64,000 nucleotides of DNA from a virus, in IMG/VR virus record IMGVR_UViG_3300019487_000019, positions 99,924 to 163,923 of that record, one strand, 5' to 3'. The translations under genes were made by a program, and so were the position numbers. The notes beneath the pieces were generated by a model. That model was given only the letters and a program-made list of their open reading frames with translations, was not told the origin of the DNA and ran no database searches. Shown here one piece after another: positions 15,745 to 62,424 of this stretch; position 1 is the first letter of the stretch, and the number at the start of each line of letters is the position of its first letter.

Positions 15745-17406
15745 TTATACTGCTCGAAAATTGCTGGGACAACACTCTTGTGGATCTTGCTTGTTTTTGA
15801 GAACAAACTTGAGCGTTCCACAGTCCCAAACACGATAGAAACCATGGTTTTCCATGTTTTGATATTCCGTTAGACCAGCATCATAATTTGGCAATGTGTT
15901 CTTAATGATGTCTTTGCGGTAATTCCAACGATGTTTCCTCTTATTGTCAACGACGTAAAAGTAATCAGGTGGGTTGATTTTTTCAAGTTTGAGGCCAAGC
16001 TTTTCATACAAGTTACCAACACTCCAACGACGGTCAGCATAGCTGTAAATTTCCTTCCACGTGTTGTTGTTTTGGAAATGCTTCAATAATTTCGAAGCTA
16101 TTCCTGGAATACGATAATTAGTGTCCGTGGCGAACCGTACAAGCTCAAACGTTCCTTTCTGTTTCTTATTATGTTTACCTATGCCAGCTCGCGGTGTTGA
16201 AAATGTCATAACTGCAATTATAGCATCTGCGTAGTAGGCACCATACGCAATTTGGGCGTTGTCATTTCCTTGGTTATGATGAGCATTTAGCAAAGCAGCT
16301 TTTTCTTGTGGGATACACATTCGTATGTCACATTGTCGTGCATGAATTCGTTCGACACCATTAACGCGTGTTCTGTGTAACAGTTTACTTCGTATCAAGT
16401 TAATGTTTGCCAGTTCATCCTCAAAGACGATTGTTGTTGTTATCCCCTGTGCGTCGAGTGCTTTTTTGGAATGAAGTGCTGTTTTGCTATTTGATTGAGA
16501 ACGGTCCAAAGGAATCAAGACGATCGCATGGTTGTATTGTTCGCTATAGAGATCAACGATGGTATCACCTAACTTATAAAATGGTTTGTAGTCATCGACA
16601 GTCAAAGTGTCTCTGTATGATTTCAAACGATCGTGAGCGGAAAGATGTGGATAGAAAACAGGAGGGATTGTTCCTTTTAGGTGATTGCGCGAACCAACAT
16701 TTTCACGCCATCCAATCATTTGCAGGTTACTTTTGTCAGCACAAACTACTGGGGGGATTTGGTTATCAAAACAAAATCGTTTTGGAACGATATGATCAAG
16801 ATGATATGCTCCTTCGGTTCCTGCCTTACCTTTGGGGAGATTCTTCGGATTGATATGCTTCTTGTATTTTCGGTACGTTTGAGACGTCAATGATGAAACA
16901 TCAGCTTTATACTTCTGCCACTCAGAAGCTGTTTTACGCCATTTAGCGGAATTTGCTTTCGACCAAGCGGTGATTGTAGACGTTCTATCTCTTTTTCCAC
17001 ACACAGTACATTTAGTTTGTAATTCTATAACATTTCCAGGATATGTCTCAAATTCATGACCACATATAATGTTCTTGAATTTTATTTTTTGTGTCGTTGA
17101 TCTCAATGCTGAATATTCACCCACAATAACAACTCCAAGATTGGCCATTTTATCTAGGTGAATTTGCTGTATTTGCTGCGTTGCTTCTTTTTTACGAGCT
17201 TTATTACACATAGGGCATCCACCAACACCGTATTTCTTATATGTTTGACGTTTGGAAATTGGTGTAGCCGTCCATGTATGGTGGCATGTTAAACATTGCA
17301 TTGAATGATGTTGTTTAGCACCTGAGAATGGTTCTAACAACTTAATTCTGTTTTCCTGTTCAAGCGTCGCAGGATAGCTATCATCTAGTTCACCTTCTTG
17401 GGGCAT
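15745..17406 (-). CDS. Homing-endonuclease-like protein (Zn-ribbons + HNH + Hef-like C-terminal domain)
   Basis: CxxC repeats; YHLDHIVP...NLQ....EN HNH motif; C-terminal H.QG, AVMTF, ELVRFAT, ASKLL, SYADRRWS, RVWDCG block typical of Hef-like phage genes. Probable start ATG 17406 after GGAG. Confidence 0.75.
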   Translation of the reverse strand: MPQEGELDDSYPATLEQENRIKLLEPFSGAKQHHSMQCLTCHHTWTATPISKRQTYKKYGVGGCPMCNKARKKEATQQIQQIHLDKMANLGVVIVGEYSALRSTTQKIKFKNIICGHEFETYPGNVIELQTKCTVCGKRDRTSTITAWSKANSAKWRKTASEWQKYKADVSSLTSQTYRKYKKHINPKNLPKGKAGTEGAYHLDHIVPKRFCFDNQIPPVVCADKSNLQMIGWRENVGSRNHLKGTIPPVFYPHLSAHDRLKSYRDTLTVDDYKPFYKLGDTIVDLYSEQYNHAIVLIPLDRSQSNSKTALHSKKALDAQGITTTIVFEDELANINLIRSKLLHRTRVNGVERIHARQCDIRMCIPQEKAALLNAHHNQGNDNAQIAYGAYYADAIIAVMTFSTPRAGIGKHNKKQKGTFELVRFATDTNYRIPGIASKLLKHFQNNNTWKEIYSYADRRWSVGNLYEKLGLKLEKINPPDYFYVVDNKRKHRWNYRKDIIKNTLPNYDAGLTEYQNMENHGFYRVWDCGTLKFVLKNKQDPQECCPSNFRAV

Positions 17407-17495
17407 AGCGTTCTCCAAAAATATAAAGTATTCTACCGTTATTTATGAGAATATTTCAACGCTGTACAAGTCTGTTGGATTACCTACTAGAGAAA

Positions 17496-17536: not shown

Positions 17537-18973
17537 TTAAGCAAACTGGAAGTTCAGAACATTCACCTTGCCGTAGTAGTCAGCCGAATTACCCAAACTC
17601 GTTTCTGTCTGGGTGAACGCTGTCTTACCATAGCGTGTCATCATCGAAACGACTGGCTGGAACGTTACTGGGTTGATAACAACACCACTTGACATCAGTG
17701 GGATGTATGGGCAGTAGAAGTAACCAGTGTCTGTCTCGCCGTTGCCACCCTTGTAACCAACTAGGATGACGTCGTTTGTTGCTGCTGAAAGGCCTGAAAC
17801 TTGGTTCCACAGGTAGCTGTAAACCTTGATTGTACCGTTCAGTGTACCAACCAACATTGTGTTGTTTGGACCCTTGAAGCTGCCAGCGACTGCAGGTGCG
17901 AACACCGACTTAGCTGCGCTCTGAAGGATCGAAACGACCATTGGCGATACAACGATGAAGTTACCTGGACCACGACGTGTCTTGCGAGCGATTTCATTAG
18001 CAACTGCGTTGATAACGATACCGAGGTTAGCAAAACGATCGCCTAGGTAGGCTGGCTGATACTGTGGGCCAAGGCCGATTGTTGCGTAGTCGTATACACC
18101 AACTGTACCTGCGAGGGCCAGAAGGTCTGTCAGGATTTCGGAATCGATTTCCTGTACGATTTCTGCTGAAACAACCTGTGACAACTCAGACTCAAGATCC
18201 AGACCATGCTGTGCCTTAAGGTCTTGCATTGCTTCGATTGTCCAACCAGCTTGTAGCTTACGTGTACCTGCTTCAACAGCCTGGCTGATAACTTCCAGCT
18301 TGACTGTACGGCCACCAGAACCTTCGATGAAGGAGCCGGAACCACCATACAGACGACCTGCGTAGGACTTACCAATTGCATCCGGGCCGTATGGACCGAA
18401 GAATGATGTGTCCCACGATGGGATGCTGGATGGCCATGCACCACGTGATGCTGCGCCTTGGATGTCAGCTTCGTCAGCTGCTGCGTTTGTGATACCTGAT
18501 GCACCTGCTGGCTGTGCCAACGGTGTACCAACTACTGCACCTGCTGCGCCAGAATAGAACTGACGTAGGACAGGGTTGTTACCAAACATTTCATCGCCTG
18601 CTGTGACGTTACCAAAGTTTCCTGCTGGGTTTGGCGACCATGGGTTGTCGGCTGTTGGTGCACCCGGAACCGTGACGCTCTCACCGTAACGATAACGCAT
18701 CGTGTAAACCAGACCAACTGGACCTTGCATTGGCTGAACGCCAACGATTTCGGTTGCAATTGTGCCTGGAAGAATACGACGAATCATCGGGATCAGGATC
18801 TTGCGGAAACCTGCGATGTCGTGAGCCTGGACTGCACCAGCTGCTGCTGTTTCTGCAAGCAGATAGTCTTTTTCGTTCTCGAGGACTGGACCTACGATCT
18901 TTTTCTGATCGGCTGTCAGACCATCAAGAAGAGCTTCCTTGACTTCACTCCAATTTTCAAAAAGTTCATTCAT
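17537..18973 (-). CDS. gp23: Major capsid protein (T4 gp23-like)
   Basis: GVQPM.GP.G....MR, RKL.A.WT.EA.QDL...HG, VGYKG, YFYCPYIPL, TFQP....MTRYG motifs. Follows scaffold, protease and portal. Confidence 0.97.
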   Translation of the reverse strand: MNELFENWSEVKEALLDGLTADQKKIVGPVLENEKDYLLAETAAAGAVQAHDIAGFRKILIPMIRRILPGTIATEIVGVQPMQGPVGLVYTMRYRYGESVTVPGAPTADNPWSPNPAGNFGNVTAGDEMFGNNPVLRQFYSGAAGAVVGTPLAQPAGASGITNAAADEADIQGAASRGAWPSSIPSWDTSFFGPYGPDAIGKSYAGRLYGGSGSFIEGSGGRTVKLEVISQAVEAGTRKLQAGWTIEAMQDLKAQHGLDLESELSQVVSAEIVQEIDSEILTDLLALAGTVGVYDYATIGLGPQYQPAYLGDRFANLGIVINAVANEIARKTRRGPGNFIVVSPMVVSILQSAAKSVFAPAVAGSFKGPNNTMLVGTLNGTIKVYSYLWNQVSGLSAATNDVILVGYKGGNGETDTGYFYCPYIPLMSSGVVINPVTFQPVVSMMTRYGKTAFTQTETSLGNSADYYGKVNVLNFQFA

Positions 18974-32645: not shown

Positions 32646-34520
32646 TTAGTACTGCAGTGGTTGATTATCATCTTCCGCAGGAGGGTTGTCAACGGTTGTC
32701 GCAGACGCAGGGGCCTTTGGTAATCGCTCGAGGGCATCTGCAATCTGTTTATTGAGGTGGAAATCATCATCTCCGTCGCGGCCTTCACCTTCACCATAAC
32801 CATGAGAAGGATTGAGACCTTGATCAATGATGAGCAGATCTCGAATAACACGTTGTCGTTTCTCTTGGTTTAGATACTGAATGAAAGAGTGTTTGATGCA
32901 CTGTGTAAAGAAAGCGAAAGCATTGCTACTTTTTGCAGGATCGAAACTGTTCCATGTTCGAACAAGCATCATCATTGCATATCCCTGCATATCCTCGTTG
33001 TATGTATTCCCTGTGACGTAGATATACTTGCCACGCCGAGCGACAAAAGTACCATACTCAGTCCGTGGGCACCATATCTGTCCGGTGTATTGCTCGGTGG
33101 GGAGGTTCGGTTTGTTGTTCCTACGACCGCCGGCTGCTTGCTTTCCACCGTGAAAGTCAATCCACTCCGCACGACATGTAGTTTTTGGTTCACTATAAAT
33201 GTTCACGCTGAGTACATCACTAACACCACCACAGGGATTTTTTCTGCTAATGGGTGTTTTGTACGTCATTGGTGTAACAGAAACGGTCTGCCCCGCTAAC
33301 GTACAGAGCATTAGGAATGCGTCAATATGTTCGGGGGACTTTTGGACGTATGACATCCCTCCTGATGGTCGTATCCACCCATCACCAGCCACCATAGTTT
33401 TGATAAGTAATAGTCGTTGTGTTTGAATAAGGTCTAAAAGAAATTCACATGCAGGTACACGGGACGGAGCAATTGTTTGATGTATTTTTGATATCCAGGT
33501 GCCTGTACAGTTAAAGAGAACAATCCCCTGATTGTTCAGATATTCCTTATGGGGAATAGCGAGTGATTGTAATAGTTGGCGGATTTGGTTAGCTTTGGCT
33601 CCCTGTTTTTGGGAAATTTGTATCGAGTGTCGCTTTTTAGAGTTAGTGCTGTAGTATCCTTCAGTAATGCACCACCCTACAAGCTCCACAACATTGTCGG
33701 AATAGATAATCCTACCATCTGCCACCGGTTGTCCCATTAAAACGATGTGTTCATTGCAGATGATATCCTCAACGGGAATCAAACCACGTTCCATAGAAAC
33801 AAACTTATGATTTGGTGTTACGAGAGCGTCAAGTCCTTGTGTTGAGAGTTTGTGCATTGTGTTTGAATAGTCGCTTCGAAAGACTTCAAGAACTTTTGAC
33901 CATACGAGCTGTTGTGTTTCCAGACTATACGAAAGAATCTCATCGTCTGTTGTCATTTGTTGATGTGTTTTCCAACCACTTTTTGTTAATGCTAGTGTGG
34001 CACCATCAACACAGTAATTAACGAAATTGCCCTTCTTTGCATACTTGGCACATAGCAACTGAAGCATTTGCGCTAGTTTGTTTGTCATCTGTTTATCTTT
34101 CTTGCTATGTTTGACTTCAGCAAGAAGGTCTCTATTGTTCAAGTAGATGTTTTTTGGAACTACTTGCGGTGGTCGTTCAAGAACAAGTTCAGGCGGTGGT
34201 GGAAGTGCTTTGACCTTTGGTCGAACCGGACCAGGAACCTTGTAAATGATTTCTTTGACTTTTTCAGGCTCCGCAGGAGTGTGTCGATTCAAAACTGCTG
34301 TCAGTTTTTTCCGTTCTTCGCGTCGCGCTTTACGTACAGCTCGTTTTTGCTCTTGCTTTTTACGATGGTAGTACGAGAGACCCTCTTGTTTTAGTTTTTG
34401 TTTTTTGGTGAGTTTGGGTTTACGTGGAGTAGCTGATTTTACGACACGCTTAACGATAGTTTTCTTACTCTTTGCGGCTTTGACTTTCTTGGAACGGACC
34501 TTATTCTTCGTTTTTTTCAT
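32646..34520 (-). CDS. gp55: Late-transcription sigma factor (gp55-like), intein-containing, with Lys-rich N-terminal extension
   Basis: Extein YLNNRDLL...NFVNY|TYNEDM...FDPAKSSNAFAFFTQ...EKRQ matches the gp55 pattern, and synteny is 55-47-46. Start ATG 34520, since the track's GTG lies inside the promoter. Confidence 0.88.
   Translation of the reverse strand: MKKTKNKVRSKKVKAAKSKKTIVKRVVKSATPRKPKLTKKQKLKQEGLSYYHRKKQEQKRAVRKARREERKKLTAVLNRHTPAEPEKVKEIIYKVPGPVRPKVKALPPPPELVLERPPQVVPKNIYLNNRDLLAEVKHSKKDKQMTNKLAQMLQLLCAKYAKKGNFVNYCVDGATLALTKSGWKTHQQMTTDDEILSYSLETQQLVWSKVLEVFRSDYSNTMHKLSTQGLDALVTPNHKFVSMERGLIPVEDIICNEHIVLMGQPVADGRIIYSDNVVELVGWCITEGYYSTNSKKRHSIQISQKQGAKANQIRQLLQSLAIPHKEYLNNQGIVLFNCTGTWISKIHQTIAPSRVPACEFLLDLIQTQRLLLIKTMVAGDGWIRPSGGMSYVQKSPEHIDAFLMLCTLAGQTVSVTPMTYKTPISRKNPCGGVSDVLSVNIYSEPKTTCRAEWIDFHGGKQAAGGRRNNKPNLPTEQYTGQIWCPRTEYGTFVARRGKYIYVTGNTYNEDMQGYAMMMLVRTWNSFDPAKSSNAFAFFTQCIKHSFIQYLNQEKRQRVIRDLLIIDQGLNPSHGYGEGEGRDGDDDFHLNKQIADALERLPKAPASATTVDNPPAEDDNQPLQY
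33006..34013 (-). mobile_element. Intein (336 aa) with LAGLIDADG-type endonuclease in the late sigma factor
   Basis: N-junction NY|CVDGAT, block B VTPNH, dodecapeptide-like ELVGWCITEG and LIKTMVAGDG, C-junction FVARRGKYIYVTGN|TY. Confidence 0.92.
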
Positions 34521-34562
34521 CGAGAGCGCCCTTTTATTGTTGTTTTTGGTGGGGTTCCTTTT

Positions 34563-34590
34563 ATTATAGCAGGTTTTTTCCACCAGTCAA
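34563..34590 (-). promoter_or_regulatory. Near-consensus sigma70 promoter for the gp55-47-46 operon
   Basis: Minus strand TTGACT-N16-TATAAT with extended -10 TG (TGcTATAAT). Confidence 0.75.
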
Positions 34591-59837: not shown

Positions 59838-60122
59838 TTAGTTTATAAAGACGTCGGGGGAACCGGCCGTGAAAGCACCATCATGACAGCTAGGAGGACA
59901 ACAGTGAACGCTGTGAAGGTCGCCTACGCGTGCAAGAGGGAGATTATTGGCAAAGACATTCGGGGAAGCCGTGACAACAACGGCGGGCGGAAAGCACCCA
60001 TGCCCGGTTGTTAAGTCGGTAAGACGAGCGTGTGGAATACTATTTGCAAAAACGTTTGGGCTTCCCGTGGCTTGTGTATCGCCGTCGCTATAAGGGTCGC
60101 CAATTCGGGTTGCTGCTGGCAC
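59838..60122 (-). CDS. PAAR-motif spike tip protein (gp5.4-like)
   Basis: Three PA(A)R-like repeats (AATRIGD, PHARLTD, PLARVGD) with GSPNVF.N and Cys/His ligands. Confidence 0.92.
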   Translation of the reverse strand: MPAATRIGDPYSDGDTQATGSPNVFANSIPHARLTDLTTGHGCFPPAVVVTASPNVFANNLPLARVGDLHSVHCCPPSCHDGAFTAGSPDVFIN

Positions 60123-60166: not shown

Positions 60167-60643
60167 ATGTTCGAGAGCATTTTACACGGTATTATAGCGT
60201 TTTTCGCTGCCATCCCATTTTCCAAAGCGACCTGGCTCGTACTTGGTATTCTTGGCTTCTTTGTGTGGCTATTTCGCAAGGCTCAAAGAGACCCCGCAAG
60301 CCCAATCGATTGGGAAGATCTGATTGTCGACGACATAACAGGGAAGACATCTCCCTACAAAGTCGGCTATCTTTTAGGACTGATCGTCGGCACCTGGGTA
60401 GTAATCACTTACGCTGACAGTGGCAAGCTGGACTTTGATATTTTTGGTGTGTACCTTTCGTACCTGCTTGGTGGTGCTGGCTGGACTGCCTTTATGAAAA
60501 TGAAAGCAGCCAACGGCAACAACGGTAATGGAGGTGGTTATCGTCCTGGTGGTTACGGCGGCGGTTATCGACGACCACCACCAAAACTAGACGATGATGA
60601 CGAAGAATTAGATGACGCATTGCCGCCACACGAGAAAAAATAA
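60167..60643 (+). CDS. Membrane protein, holin-like
   Basis: 3-4 hydrophobic segments and a Gly-rich/charged C-terminal tail. CAGGAG RBS. Confidence 0.5.
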   Translation: MFESILHGIIAFFAAIPFSKATWLVLGILGFFVWLFRKAQRDPASPIDWEDLIVDDITGKTSPYKVGYLLGLIVGTWVVITYADSGKLDFDIFGVYLSYLLGGAGWTAFMKMKAANGNNGNGGGYRPGGYGGGYRRPPPKLDDDDEELDDALPPHEKK

Positions 60644-60774
60644 TGGCGGGGTGTCTTACTTGCGGGCGTCGGTCCAAAGCAACTCAACGTCGATCATTAC
60701 CAATGAGACGAGCCTCTACGCCCATTGGTAATCGTTTGTCGCGGCGCGGAACTCTTCTGAAACGAAAACGTTAG
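60643..60774 (+). CDS. Putative 43-aa Arg-rich peptide with CxxC
   Basis: TAATG overlap with the upstream gene. Translates to MAGCLTCGRRSKATQRRSLPMRRASTPIGNRLSRRGTLLKRKR*. Confidence 0.35.
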   Translation: MAGCLTCGRRSKATQRRSLPMRRASTPIGNRLSRRGTLLKRKR

Positions 60775-61192
60775 GGAGTAAAGCACGCACGTCTCGATCG
60801 CGGATGCTGACGAATGTAGCATAATGTACGGGATTACCTGTGCTCTTTTCGATAAAATGCCCCGCTCTGTACGGATTATAACTGATCGGAATTCCAAAGT
60901 CGTGAACCGCGTCCCATGACTTTGCAATATTACTGGCAGTATATCCCGCTAACAAAGTTTTTTCGTCGACGAGGCGCGTCACGTATCCTCGAACGTCGAG
61001 AACCTCACCAACGATTCCGGCATGAACGTTTTTTCGTTTGTGGGCTAGAATACGTTGGCGACCAGCTTCACTGACGCGAAAGTCAGGAGCGGCGATGAGT
61101 ATGGATGTGGCGTAGCCAACAACCAATCCTTTGTTCCGGAGCGAATACGTCCAGCCTTTTCGGTTAAGATTACGGTAGATAAACGGTCTCAT
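60716..61192 (-). CDS. Phage hypothetical protein
   Basis: Start ATG 61192 (ATGA overlap). YRNL, F.VS.AGR.R.....KNVHA...G and YNPY..G.F pattern. Confidence 0.7.
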   Translation of the reverse strand: MRPFIYRNLNRKGWTYSLRNKGLVVGYATSILIAAPDFRVSEAGRQRILAHKRKNVHAGIVGEVLDVRGYVTRLVDEKTLLAGYTASNIAKSWDAVHDFGIPISYNPYRAGHFIEKSTGNPVHYATFVSIRDRDVRALLPNVFVSEEFRAATNDYQWA

Positions 61193-61377
61193 TGATTGGG
61201 CTCGTGAACAGCATCGACCCATCCACGGCCAGTATACATGAACATCTGTCCGAGGCCGGTGTGGAAGAACGTTGAGCCAATTGGTATGTCTAGCCACACA
61301 CGAACACCATTCGATAGGTCGCGAAATTGTTTTGGGACTTCTTCACCCGTAATGTGATGTGCACTAAAGTTGAACAT
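61189..61377 (-). CDS. Small hypothetical protein with one Trp-repeat-like unit
   Basis: ATG 61377 (MFNFSAHH...), 62 aa. GSTFFHTGLGQMFMYTGRGWV resembles the neck-protein repeat. Its stop is coupled to the next gene. Confidence 0.5.
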   Translation of the reverse strand: MFNFSAHHITGEEVPKQFRDLSNGVRVWLDIPIGSTFFHTGLGQMFMYTGRGWVDAVHEPNQ

Positions 61378-61516
61378 TGGGAATGTACGGACAATAGAAA
61401 TAGCCAGTGTCGTGGGCTCCGCCAAGCATGAAGACAAGAACACCGTTTTCCAACCACACAAAGTCTCCGGTGCCTTTGTAGCCAACGAGAATATTCTCTT
61501 CTTTGTTTGTTGTCAT
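61364..61516 (-). CDS. 50-aa peptide containing two blocks identical to the major capsid protein
   Basis: MTTNKEENILVGYKGTGDFVWLENGVLVFMLGGAHDTGYFYCPYIPNVQL*. ATGA overlap with the RNase H stop. Confidence 0.75.
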   Translation of the reverse strand: MTTNKEENILVGYKGTGDFVWLENGVLVFMLGGAHDTGYFYCPYIPNVQL

Positions 61517-62424
61517 TTGCTTAGTAGGGGAACAAATTGATCAATTTGCTTTGCAATATTGTCCAACTTGTATTTACCCAAGAACTTCAACAGATGGAAA
61601 TGTGAATACTTTCGCTCCAATGCCTCTGCTTCCACAACAGTCTTTTCGATTTTGACGCGAATTGGGTCGGGTTGCTGGGCCAAGTCCATAAGGAGAATGT
61701 TCTCTTCGTACAGATCTTCAACCATGAATTCAGTCTTGGTTTTGGGGTCAGTCCACAATTCCTTCATCATTTGAACCCGTTCAAATGGATCTGTGTAGGC
61801 TTTCTCGATTCGTTTTGCACCAACACGTGGAAGTGCAGATTGAATGTTGTCAGTCTGATGATCGCCACGAACACAATTAAAGAATACGAAGTAATCAGCA
61901 TCGTTGTTGTATTCTGCCAACGTAAGCGGCTTGTCTGTTGCGGGGGAAATGATTGTTAGCTGTGGGTGGCGCAAAAGCTGCAAGAAATCCTGGTCGCTAC
62001 TGATCAGTACGATTTGATCTTGTGGATGCAGTTGTACAAAACCAGCGATCACGTCGTCTGCTTCGAGTAAATCTGCTGCAAGCGTAATGATTGTTGAGTA
62101 GTTTGTAATCAATGTCTCAAAGTCTTTAAGATGTCCACAGAAGCGTTCGTACTTTGCTTGTTGACCCGGCGACATATCTTTGCGGCGATTGCCTTTGTAT
62201 GGTCGCTTTGAGATGCAGAGATCGCTAGCTGTATAACTCTTACGCCAGCTTGACCGATCAAACGCCATAACGACTCGATCAGGCTTATGCTGTCGAAAGT
62301 ATTTGTTCAGCGTCATCAGTGCAGAGTGCATTGCGAGGCCTGCGATCGTATCATCACTCTCGTCCTTGTGAGCAAAGAACGTGCGGTACAGCATATTGGA
62401 GATATCAAAAACTAGATATTTCAT
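61513..62424 (-). CDS. rnh: RNase H / 5'-3' exonuclease (T4 Rnh-like)
   Basis: LVFD, FD..SWRK, YKGNR, EADD.I, SSD.DF.QL, GD..DNI motifs of the FEN/5' nuclease family. Confidence 0.92.
   Translation of the reverse strand: MKYLVFDISNMLYRTFFAHKDESDDTIAGLAMHSALMTLNKYFRQHKPDRVVMAFDRSSWRKSYTASDLCISKRPYKGNRRKDMSPGQQAKYERFCGHLKDFETLITNYSTIITLAADLLEADDVIAGFVQLHPQDQIVLISSDQDFLQLLRHPQLTIISPATDKPLTLAEYNNDADYFVFFNCVRGDHQTDNIQSALPRVGAKRIEKAYTDPFERVQMMKELWTDPKTKTEFMVEDLYEENILLMDLAQQPDPIRVKIEKTVVEAEALERKYSHFHLLKFLGKYKLDNIAKQIDQFVPLLSK

Follow-up and report, generated by a model that had tools for sequence, protein, structure and literature searches.

We identified a mini-gene of 50 codons (ORF50) in a giant T4-like phage which copies, residue for residue, both strands of the best-conserved C-terminal hairpin in the major capsid protein (MCP) of the same phage, and which lies outside the structural module in a replication-type operon. 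The match to the MCP, the insertion that carries ORF50, a codon usage resembling that of coding sequence, and the reappearance of the same architecture in related giant phages were observed directly, and ORF50, itself a singleton, belongs to a recurring and unexplained pattern. Our leading reading, which we hold as possible while stopping short of calling it probable, is that ORF50 encodes an expressed mimic of the MCP hairpin, with its translation, the mimicry and a binding partner all being putative. The window, i.e., the whole stretch of 64,000 nucleotides that was analysed, is part of a 183-kb IMG/VR record which represents about 58% of the phage genome.

Location and Coding Signal of ORF50

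ORF50 (61364..61516, minus strand) directly follows its upstream operon partner, a gene encoding a 303-amino-acid 5'-3' exonuclease of the RNase H/FEN type (61513..62424, minus strand; PF02739, E 7e-17), and the ATG of ORF50 overlaps the TGA of this gene (ATGA). The downstream operon partner (60716..61192, minus strand) encodes a 158-amino-acid protein resembling gp82 of L5 (PF25735, E 5e-26; phrog_586). The gene order on the minus strand is a clamp-like gene, a gene for a 150-amino-acid protein, RNase H, ORF50 and the gp82-like gene, with a DNA polymerase gene located upstream, a setting which is of the replication type and non-structural. No T4-type late promoter box was found near ORF50. 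A preliminary description of this DNA had pointed to a hidden ORF of 50 codons that is ATGA-coupled to RNase H and placed outside the late module in a replication-type operon. Both observations were confirmed, the first at the positions given above and the second by the clamp-like, RNase H and DNA polymerase neighbours. Just downstream of the gp82-like gene are a gene for a PAAR-motif protein (59838-60122, minus strand) and a gene for a Gly-rich, membrane-protein-like product (60167-60643, plus strand).

The window sequence is also present on contigs of up to 355 kb, and contigs from three or more samples show 100% identity throughout 3 kb of the ORF50 locus, which excludes an assembly artefact. 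The frame of ORF50 is favoured by a codon-usage log-likelihood of 13.4, a value that is reached by 1.2% of off-frame windows. The 20 codons that separate the two capsid-like blocks (see below) show the codon usage of the phage's own genome as well when analysed alone. In our leading reading, ORF50 is a real, lineage-specific small gene, the candidate product of which would be made through translational coupling to RNase H.

Two Blocks Shared With the Major Capsid Protein

The MCP gene of the phage (17537..18973, minus strand; PF07068, E 2e-96) encodes a protein of about 478 residues. The segment that matches ORF50 is the hairpin encoded at 17699..17767 (minus strand), which can be aligned to the corresponding segment of T4 gp23 in solved capsids. 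Block 1, the first strand of the hairpin, comprises residues 9-15 of ORF50 (61472..61492, minus strand) and is identical to MCP residues 403-409 at 7 of 7 positions, with five synonymous codon differences. Block 2, the second strand, comprises residues 36-46 (61379..61411, minus strand) and is identical to MCP residues 415-425 at 11 of 11 positions, with seven synonymous codon differences. Taken together, all 18 residues are identical while 12 of the 18 codons carry a single synonymous base difference, and the recomputed counts agree with those of the preliminary description. In place of the 5-residue turn of the MCP, ORF50 has an orphan insert of 20 residues (61412..61471, minus strand) with an N-G turn in its middle. 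The similarity to the MCP breaks off sharply at both block edges and no further similarity to the MCP was found in any frame of 60600-62000.

The ORF50-MCP alignment score of 83 compares with a mean of 28.5 for shuffled sequences, and 0 of 2000 shuffles reached it. When the six frames of the 183-kb record are compared all against all, a two-block match of this kind is expected 6e-13 times by chance. ORF50 is nevertheless not a member of the Gp23 family (PF07068; profile length 376), as it scores 17.2 bits against a gathering score of 24.4 bits and aligns with profile positions 310-325 only, which correspond to block 2. A second copy of the insertion was not found in the 183-kb record. An AF2 model of ORF50, of low confidence, places strands in the insert at residues 18-23 and 26-30. 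Two other resemblances did not reach significance, namely that of the insert to other MCP segments (alignment p 0.34) and that of ORF50 to the gp82-like protein, which share V-G-Y and D-F..E.G by eye (p 0.31).

The insert could be the remnant of an intein or intron which had split a foreign MCP at the hairpin turn, an origin that we consider hardly credible. The genome does carry inteins, and the generic beta-hairpin pattern and the N-G turn of the insert are, by eye, somewhat like intein terminal blocks. However, inteins start with Cys or Ser, end with His-Asn followed by Cys, Ser or Thr, and contain the blocks of the Hint domain, whereas the insert starts with Thr, ends with His-Asp, is only 20 residues long and has no match to an intein or Hint family. 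Moreover, the turn residues are replaced and not added to, and an expanded turn (24-84 nt) between the two blocks is absent from all MCPs and other sequences in IMG/VR. The inteins of this phage are found in the gp55-like sigma factor (32646-34583, minus strand; Cys...Gly-Asn followed by Thr) and in the family B DNA polymerase (L003:1-547), for the product of which Pfam Intein_splicing and LAGLIDADG_3 are recorded.

Codon Differences Do Not Indicate Selection

The synonymous-only differences between ORF50 and the MCP had been taken in the preliminary description as a sign of protein-level selection. For comparison with other MCPs, 80 MCP loci were fetched, which are 63-91% identical to the MCP of the window. 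In 78 of these clade MCPs, the segment from block 1 through the turn of 5 residues and block 2 to the six residues beyond it is essentially invariant, yet their genes differ pairwise by a median of 9 and a maximum of 20 of the 54 block bases. ORF50 differs from the clade MCPs at 9-17 of these 54 bases, each of its block codons is found in some clade MCP, and an equally or more atypical codon choice is seen in 2 of the 62 distinct MCP versions. Because the blocks are invariant throughout the clade, the synonymous-only pattern is expected without selection on ORF50: any fragment of a clade MCP is predicted from these alignments to show no amino acid changes and about a dozen synonymous ones. The argument for selection therefore fails, and synonymous-only differences to an invariant motif are, by themselves, no evidence of selection. 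The alternative that had been offered alongside it, a fragment of another phage's gp23 gene, accounts for the codon pattern. Within the comparison, one MCP gene, from a 237-kb relative, shows a frame break after block 2 (L037:4272-4284) caused by the loss of 1 nt in a C run, which is probably an assembly error and was set aside.

This result bears directly on the main rival of the mimic reading, i.e., that ORF50 is a neutral chimeric by-product in which a piece of a relative's MCP gene and unrelated DNA were pasted after RNase H and which has no selected role related to the capsid. We consider such an origin possible and nearly as likely as the mimic. The piece could have come from a co-infecting relative through break repair or homeologous recombination at the conserved block, and the resulting ORF is perhaps translated. 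In addition to the codon pattern, which is expected for any captured fragment, the by-product origin is favoured by the richness of the genome in mobile elements, with an HNH endonuclease gene after the MCP gene and inteins in DNA polymerase and sigma factor. Because the HNH endonuclease gene adjoins the MCP gene and inteins are present in the genome, breaks and repair near the 3' end of the MCP gene are plausible, and mobile elements of these kinds could give rise to a patchwork like ORF50. What a by-product does not readily explain is the selective composition of ORF50. The turn and the six residues after block 2 are missing, which demands a patchwork of a 21-nt and a 33-nt piece around 60 orphan bases, and the edges of similarity are sharp, with no graded decay. 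The coding-like codon usage, insert included, also stands against it.

The HNH endonuclease itself (557 amino acids; 15745-17418, minus strand; phrog_559 and phrog_3339) suggests another explanation, in which the recoded MCP segment acts at the DNA level as a target, decoy or immunity site of a homing endonuclease. The endonuclease gene lies 118 nt after the MCP gene and about 280 nt from the hairpin codons, and its target may be located in the conserved 3' end of the MCP gene. Against a role of the DNA, only 42 of the 54 bases match and these are split by 60 unrelated bases. The identity of the amino acids together with third-base changes points to the protein and not the DNA as the conserved level, and we regard a DNA-level role as very improbable. 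In many relatives the same spot holds a full-length or a truncated copy (N-terminal 255 amino acids) of the endonuclease gene, in others no copy, and this sporadic presence is the pattern of a free-standing homing gene.

A Derived Insertion Between RNase H and the gp82-Like Gene

ORF50 and a second small ORF, ORF62, together make up an insertion of 324 bp (61193..61516, minus strand) between RNase H and the gp82-like gene. ORF62 (61189..61377, minus strand) is an orphan of 62 amino acids in the +1 frame relative to ORF50, and its codon log-likelihood of 16.9 is reached by 0.3% of off-frame windows. ORF62 begins with an ATG within ORF50, 14 nt before the end of the latter, and its TGA shares bases with the start codon of the gp82-like gene. 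The two ORFs thus fill the insertion without a spacer and with start/stop overlaps at both ends. The GC content of the insertion is normal and neither a promoter nor a terminator was found within it.

In six related loci (L089, L090, L092/L142, L141, L143 and L189) the stop codon of RNase H overlaps or adjoins the start codon of the gp82-like gene, and the insertion is therefore derived. The absence of ORF50 from these loci is a finding which the preliminary description had named as counting against a functional peptide, and it is likewise to be expected if ORF50, an orphan, is a by-product of recombination. The RNase H proteins of the six loci are 59-74% identical to that of the window. Since the closest RNase H among 15 billion proteins is only 74% identical, the insertion can be dated no more finely than that. 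Other small genes were seen after RNase H in relatives, namely an unrelated 60-amino-acid ORF in locus L188 and a 145-amino-acid ORF in locus L006. Judged from these loci, small genes vary at the junction of RNase H and the gp82-like gene, which again is in line with a by-product. The 60-amino-acid ORF (L188:2870-3052) is ATGA-coupled to an RNase H that is 70% identical to that of the window and has the same position as ORF50; comparison of this ORF with ORF62 or ORF50 gave no significant match.

Homologues of the two small ORFs were not detected. For ORF50 there was no small-protein homologue among 5.8 billion clusters and none in 1.84 billion representatives, in IMG/VR or in phage genomes, and ORF62 had no small-protein homologue among the same 5.8 billion clusters. 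ORF62, a 98-amino-acid frame and the ORFs on the opposite strand had no match in Pfam, PHROGs, phage genomes or the ESM Atlas, and the DNA of the locus had no match in 50,697 phage records. Several candidate matches were rejected. The phmmer matches of ORF50 to long repeat proteins are sums of weak repeats (e.g., Ig-like strands) and do not represent homology, a match in Pseudomonas phage Rollin is antisense to an annotated gene, and a match in RsoM2USA lies inside an unannotated protein of 411 amino acids and is therefore no mini-ORF. A target-site duplication, with the 3' end of RNase H repeated before the gp82-like gene, was not supported (p above 0.26). The ORF50 insert and ORF62 share a V-W-L-acid motif with only three occurrences in all ORFs of the record, but their alignment is not significant (p 0.23).

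The close packing of the two ORFs raises the question whether ORF50 forms only the N-terminus of a longer product (about 108 amino acids) that has ORF62 as its tail, generated either by a +1 shift at the CCC-A that is present after block 2 or from a gene that was recently split by 1 nt. Such a product is compatible with the mimic as well as with the by-product reading. The insertion opens with an ATG in one frame and closes with a TGA in the +1 frame, exactly 324 nt lie between the coupled ATG codons, and the coding signal changes frame at 61364-61379, all of which would fit a single product. A fusion would also reproduce a hairpin followed by a tail of 34-44 residues, the design found in the relatives described below. 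On the other hand, although 62 codons can be read in the +1 frame without a stop, CCC-A is followed by an ordinary codon for Asn, neither a stop nor a rare codon, and no stimulator was recognised; moreover, ORF62 has an ATG of its own. Joining the two parts gains no family match, the tail has no similarity to the MCP, and the Gp23 score of the joined protein is 15.9 bits. A fusion product is considered unlikely.

Hairpin Mini-ORFs in Related Giant Phages

The preliminary description had proposed a hunt for small ORFs with the hairpin motif outside gp23 genes, and such ORFs were found in two related giant phages. The genome G001 (350 kb, complete) has a 59-amino-acid ORF (ORF59; L196:1495-1674) in which the hairpin begins three residues after the start and which is coupled by TGATG to an RNA ligase gene. 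Its similarity to the MCP stops at the same proline as in ORF50 and is followed by an unrelated tail. The genome G016 (332 kb, 94% complete) has a 69-amino-acid ORF (ORF69; L289:1141-1350) of the same design as ORF59, which is ATGA-coupled and flanked by genes for a thymidylate synthase-like protein and a helicase. Both ORFs exceed the Pfam Gp23 threshold (29.6 bits for ORF59 and 27.6 bits for ORF69), solely by profile positions of about 301-341. In a third relative, G006 (364 kb, complete), block 2 and the residues following it are found in the C-terminal third of an unrelated 435-amino-acid protein without an assigned family (L204, G006:C1:222119-225175, minus strand). All three near-complete relatives thus have the hairpin motif, or block 2 in the case of G006, outside full-length MCP genes.

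ORF50 has its hairpin at the N-terminus and a similarity to the MCP that is bounded by both strands, and it shares with the G001 and G016 ORFs a location outside the structural module and a start/stop overlap to a gene of nucleic acid metabolism. ORF50 aligns with ORF59 and ORF69 over the hairpin alone, the tails are unrelated to each other, and each of the three ORFs forms a single-member cluster. The positions that vary in ORF59 and ORF69 overlap while the core is kept, with P about 0.04 for a comparison of two singleton ORFs. The same fragment with the same boundaries at the N-termini of mini-ORFs in two other giant phages also stands against a neutral by-product. Conversely, ORF59 and ORF69 have turns resembling natural 4-residue turns in MCPs of other clades, and could therefore be plain captured fragments. 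An array or a shared tag of fragment-bearing mini-genes was not found, ORF50 being the sole small ORF with a match to a large protein in the 183 kb, or 58% of the genome, covered by the record.

Other pieces of MCP were observed in these relatives. A 155-amino-acid ORF of G016 (L289:1338-1805) overlaps the end of ORF69 and has a C-terminal block with a weak resemblance to an MCP helix (PF07068 positions 169-196, E 0.003), and it is possible that these two neighbouring small genes carry distinct pieces of the MCP. In the same genome, a 184-amino-acid ORF (L320:1498-2052) located some 3 kb downstream from the MCP gene starts with the N-terminal conserved block of the MCP (PF07068 positions 5-53, 39 bits) and has an unrelated remainder. 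In an alignment to T4 gp23, this N-terminal block corresponds to the Gol-type region. The complete relatives also encode a second, divergent MCP paralogue of 430-440 amino acids (L195:628-1950 in G001; G006:C1:323166-324014), which is possibly a vertex protein. No MCP paralogue was found in the 183 kb of the window's phage.

A Candidate Mimic of the MCP Hairpin

In the mimic reading, ORF50 would be translated from the replication-type operon through its coupling to RNase H and would yield a small beta-rich peptide whose outer strands are the invariant strands of the MCP hairpin, with the 20-residue insert taking the place of the native 5-residue turn. Such a peptide would be made before the MCP and could, by molecular mimicry, occupy whatever recognises the hairpin; candidate partners are a host sensor of the MCP, a factor for folding or assembly, or an adjacent subunit of the capsid. 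Giant T4-like phages would, on this reading, repeatedly maintain mini-genes that lie away from the structural module and display highly conserved MCP blocks.

Our preference for the mimic reading is based on several observations. The match is far above chance and limited to the two strands, and the turn and the six residues after block 2, which are equally invariant in the MCPs, are missing. ORF50 and ORF62 are packed seamlessly into the operon with a coding-like codon usage. The hairpin, its edges and its genomic setting recur in G001 and G016, the variation of ORF59 and ORF69 overlaps, and a comparable idea has been proposed for a giant virus (PMC5871332). The mimic reading is weakened by the lack of homologues of ORF50, its absence from the locus in relatives and the 100% identity of all its copies, as well as by the finding that capture from another clade MCP fully explains the codons. 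The natural-like turns of the G001 and G016 ORFs, the lack of an array or shared tag in the 183 kb and the low confidence of the AF2 model weaken it further. The capsid mimic or decoy suggested in the preliminary description thus stands as the leading reading, on account of the missing turn and the G001 and G016 mini-ORFs, and has lost the synonymous-codon argument on which it was built.

A broader and more speculative proposal, which we think is rather unlikely to hold in full, is that ORF50 and the G001 and G016 mini-ORFs represent an undescribed class of counter-measures or regulators, in which early free copies of the least mutable MCP segments would neutralise host MCP sensors or titrate a folding or assembly factor. 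Capsid-sensing defences are expected to target segments that the phage cannot change. If the mimic reading is true, free mini-proteins that display such segments would constitute a novel means of countering defence or of controlling assembly, and the mini-genes would point to the MCP segments that defences sense. ORF50, with 18 of its 50 residues identical to the MCP hairpin, would be a clean and very small case.

Comparison With Known Systems

Compared to T4-type gp23 proteins (PF07068; 5VF3, 6UZC and 8GMO), ORF50 has both strands of the most conserved C-terminal hairpin but shares only 18 of about 478 residues, lacks the HK97 fold, has its turn replaced and is encoded in a replication operon. 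The mini-ORFs of G001 and G016 are the closest in design, as all three ORFs have a distance of 3-8 residues between the Met and the hairpin, a common end point of the similarity, a start/stop overlap and the status of an orphan. They differ from ORF50 in having a 4-residue turn and a tail of 34-44 residues after the hairpin, whereas in ORF50 the additional module lies within the turn and hardly any tail follows. In addition, the G001 and G016 hairpins differ from those of their own MCPs at several positions, in contrast to the 18 of 18 identical residues of ORF50.

T4-like genomes contain variable (hyperplastic) regions with lineage-specific small ORFs, and ORF50 resembles these in being a young orphan at a junction where small genes vary between lineages. 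The small ORFs of hyperplastic regions are not known to reproduce any invariant part of a structural protein.

Recognition of a short MCP segment by host defence is known for Gol, the peptide that represents the conserved N-terminal block of T4 gp23 and is recognised in conjunction with the Lit protease. CapRelSJ46 also senses the MCP (PMC13728456). In both systems a short conserved MCP segment is recognised by a host defence, and a free copy of such a segment could plausibly interact with it. Unlike ORF50, Gol is an N-terminal block and not a hairpin, and it is not separately encoded; ORF50 aligns with profile positions 310-325 and not with the N-terminal block, and is thus not a copy of the Gol region. 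For systems of the Gol/CapRel type, a free copy of the trigger is expected to activate the defence and not to block it, and none of these systems is linked to the phage described here. A 2026 review of phage counter-defences contains no capsid-mimic protein.

The nearest conceptual precedent is Bodo saltans virus, in which ankyrin-repeat ORFs carry fragments of essential viral genes and were proposed to act as decoys that mimic the targets of a defence (Deeg et al., 2018, PMC5871332). That case concerns a giant virus of eukaryotes with fragments that are fused to a binding domain and massively duplicated, and its decoy function is a hypothesis only, whereas ORF50 is present as a single copy without a binder domain. 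Common to both cases is a large virus with additional proteins in which parts of its own essential proteins are displayed. We describe ORF50 as a small accessory ORF specific to its lineage, for which a role as a self-fragment decoy is hypothesised.
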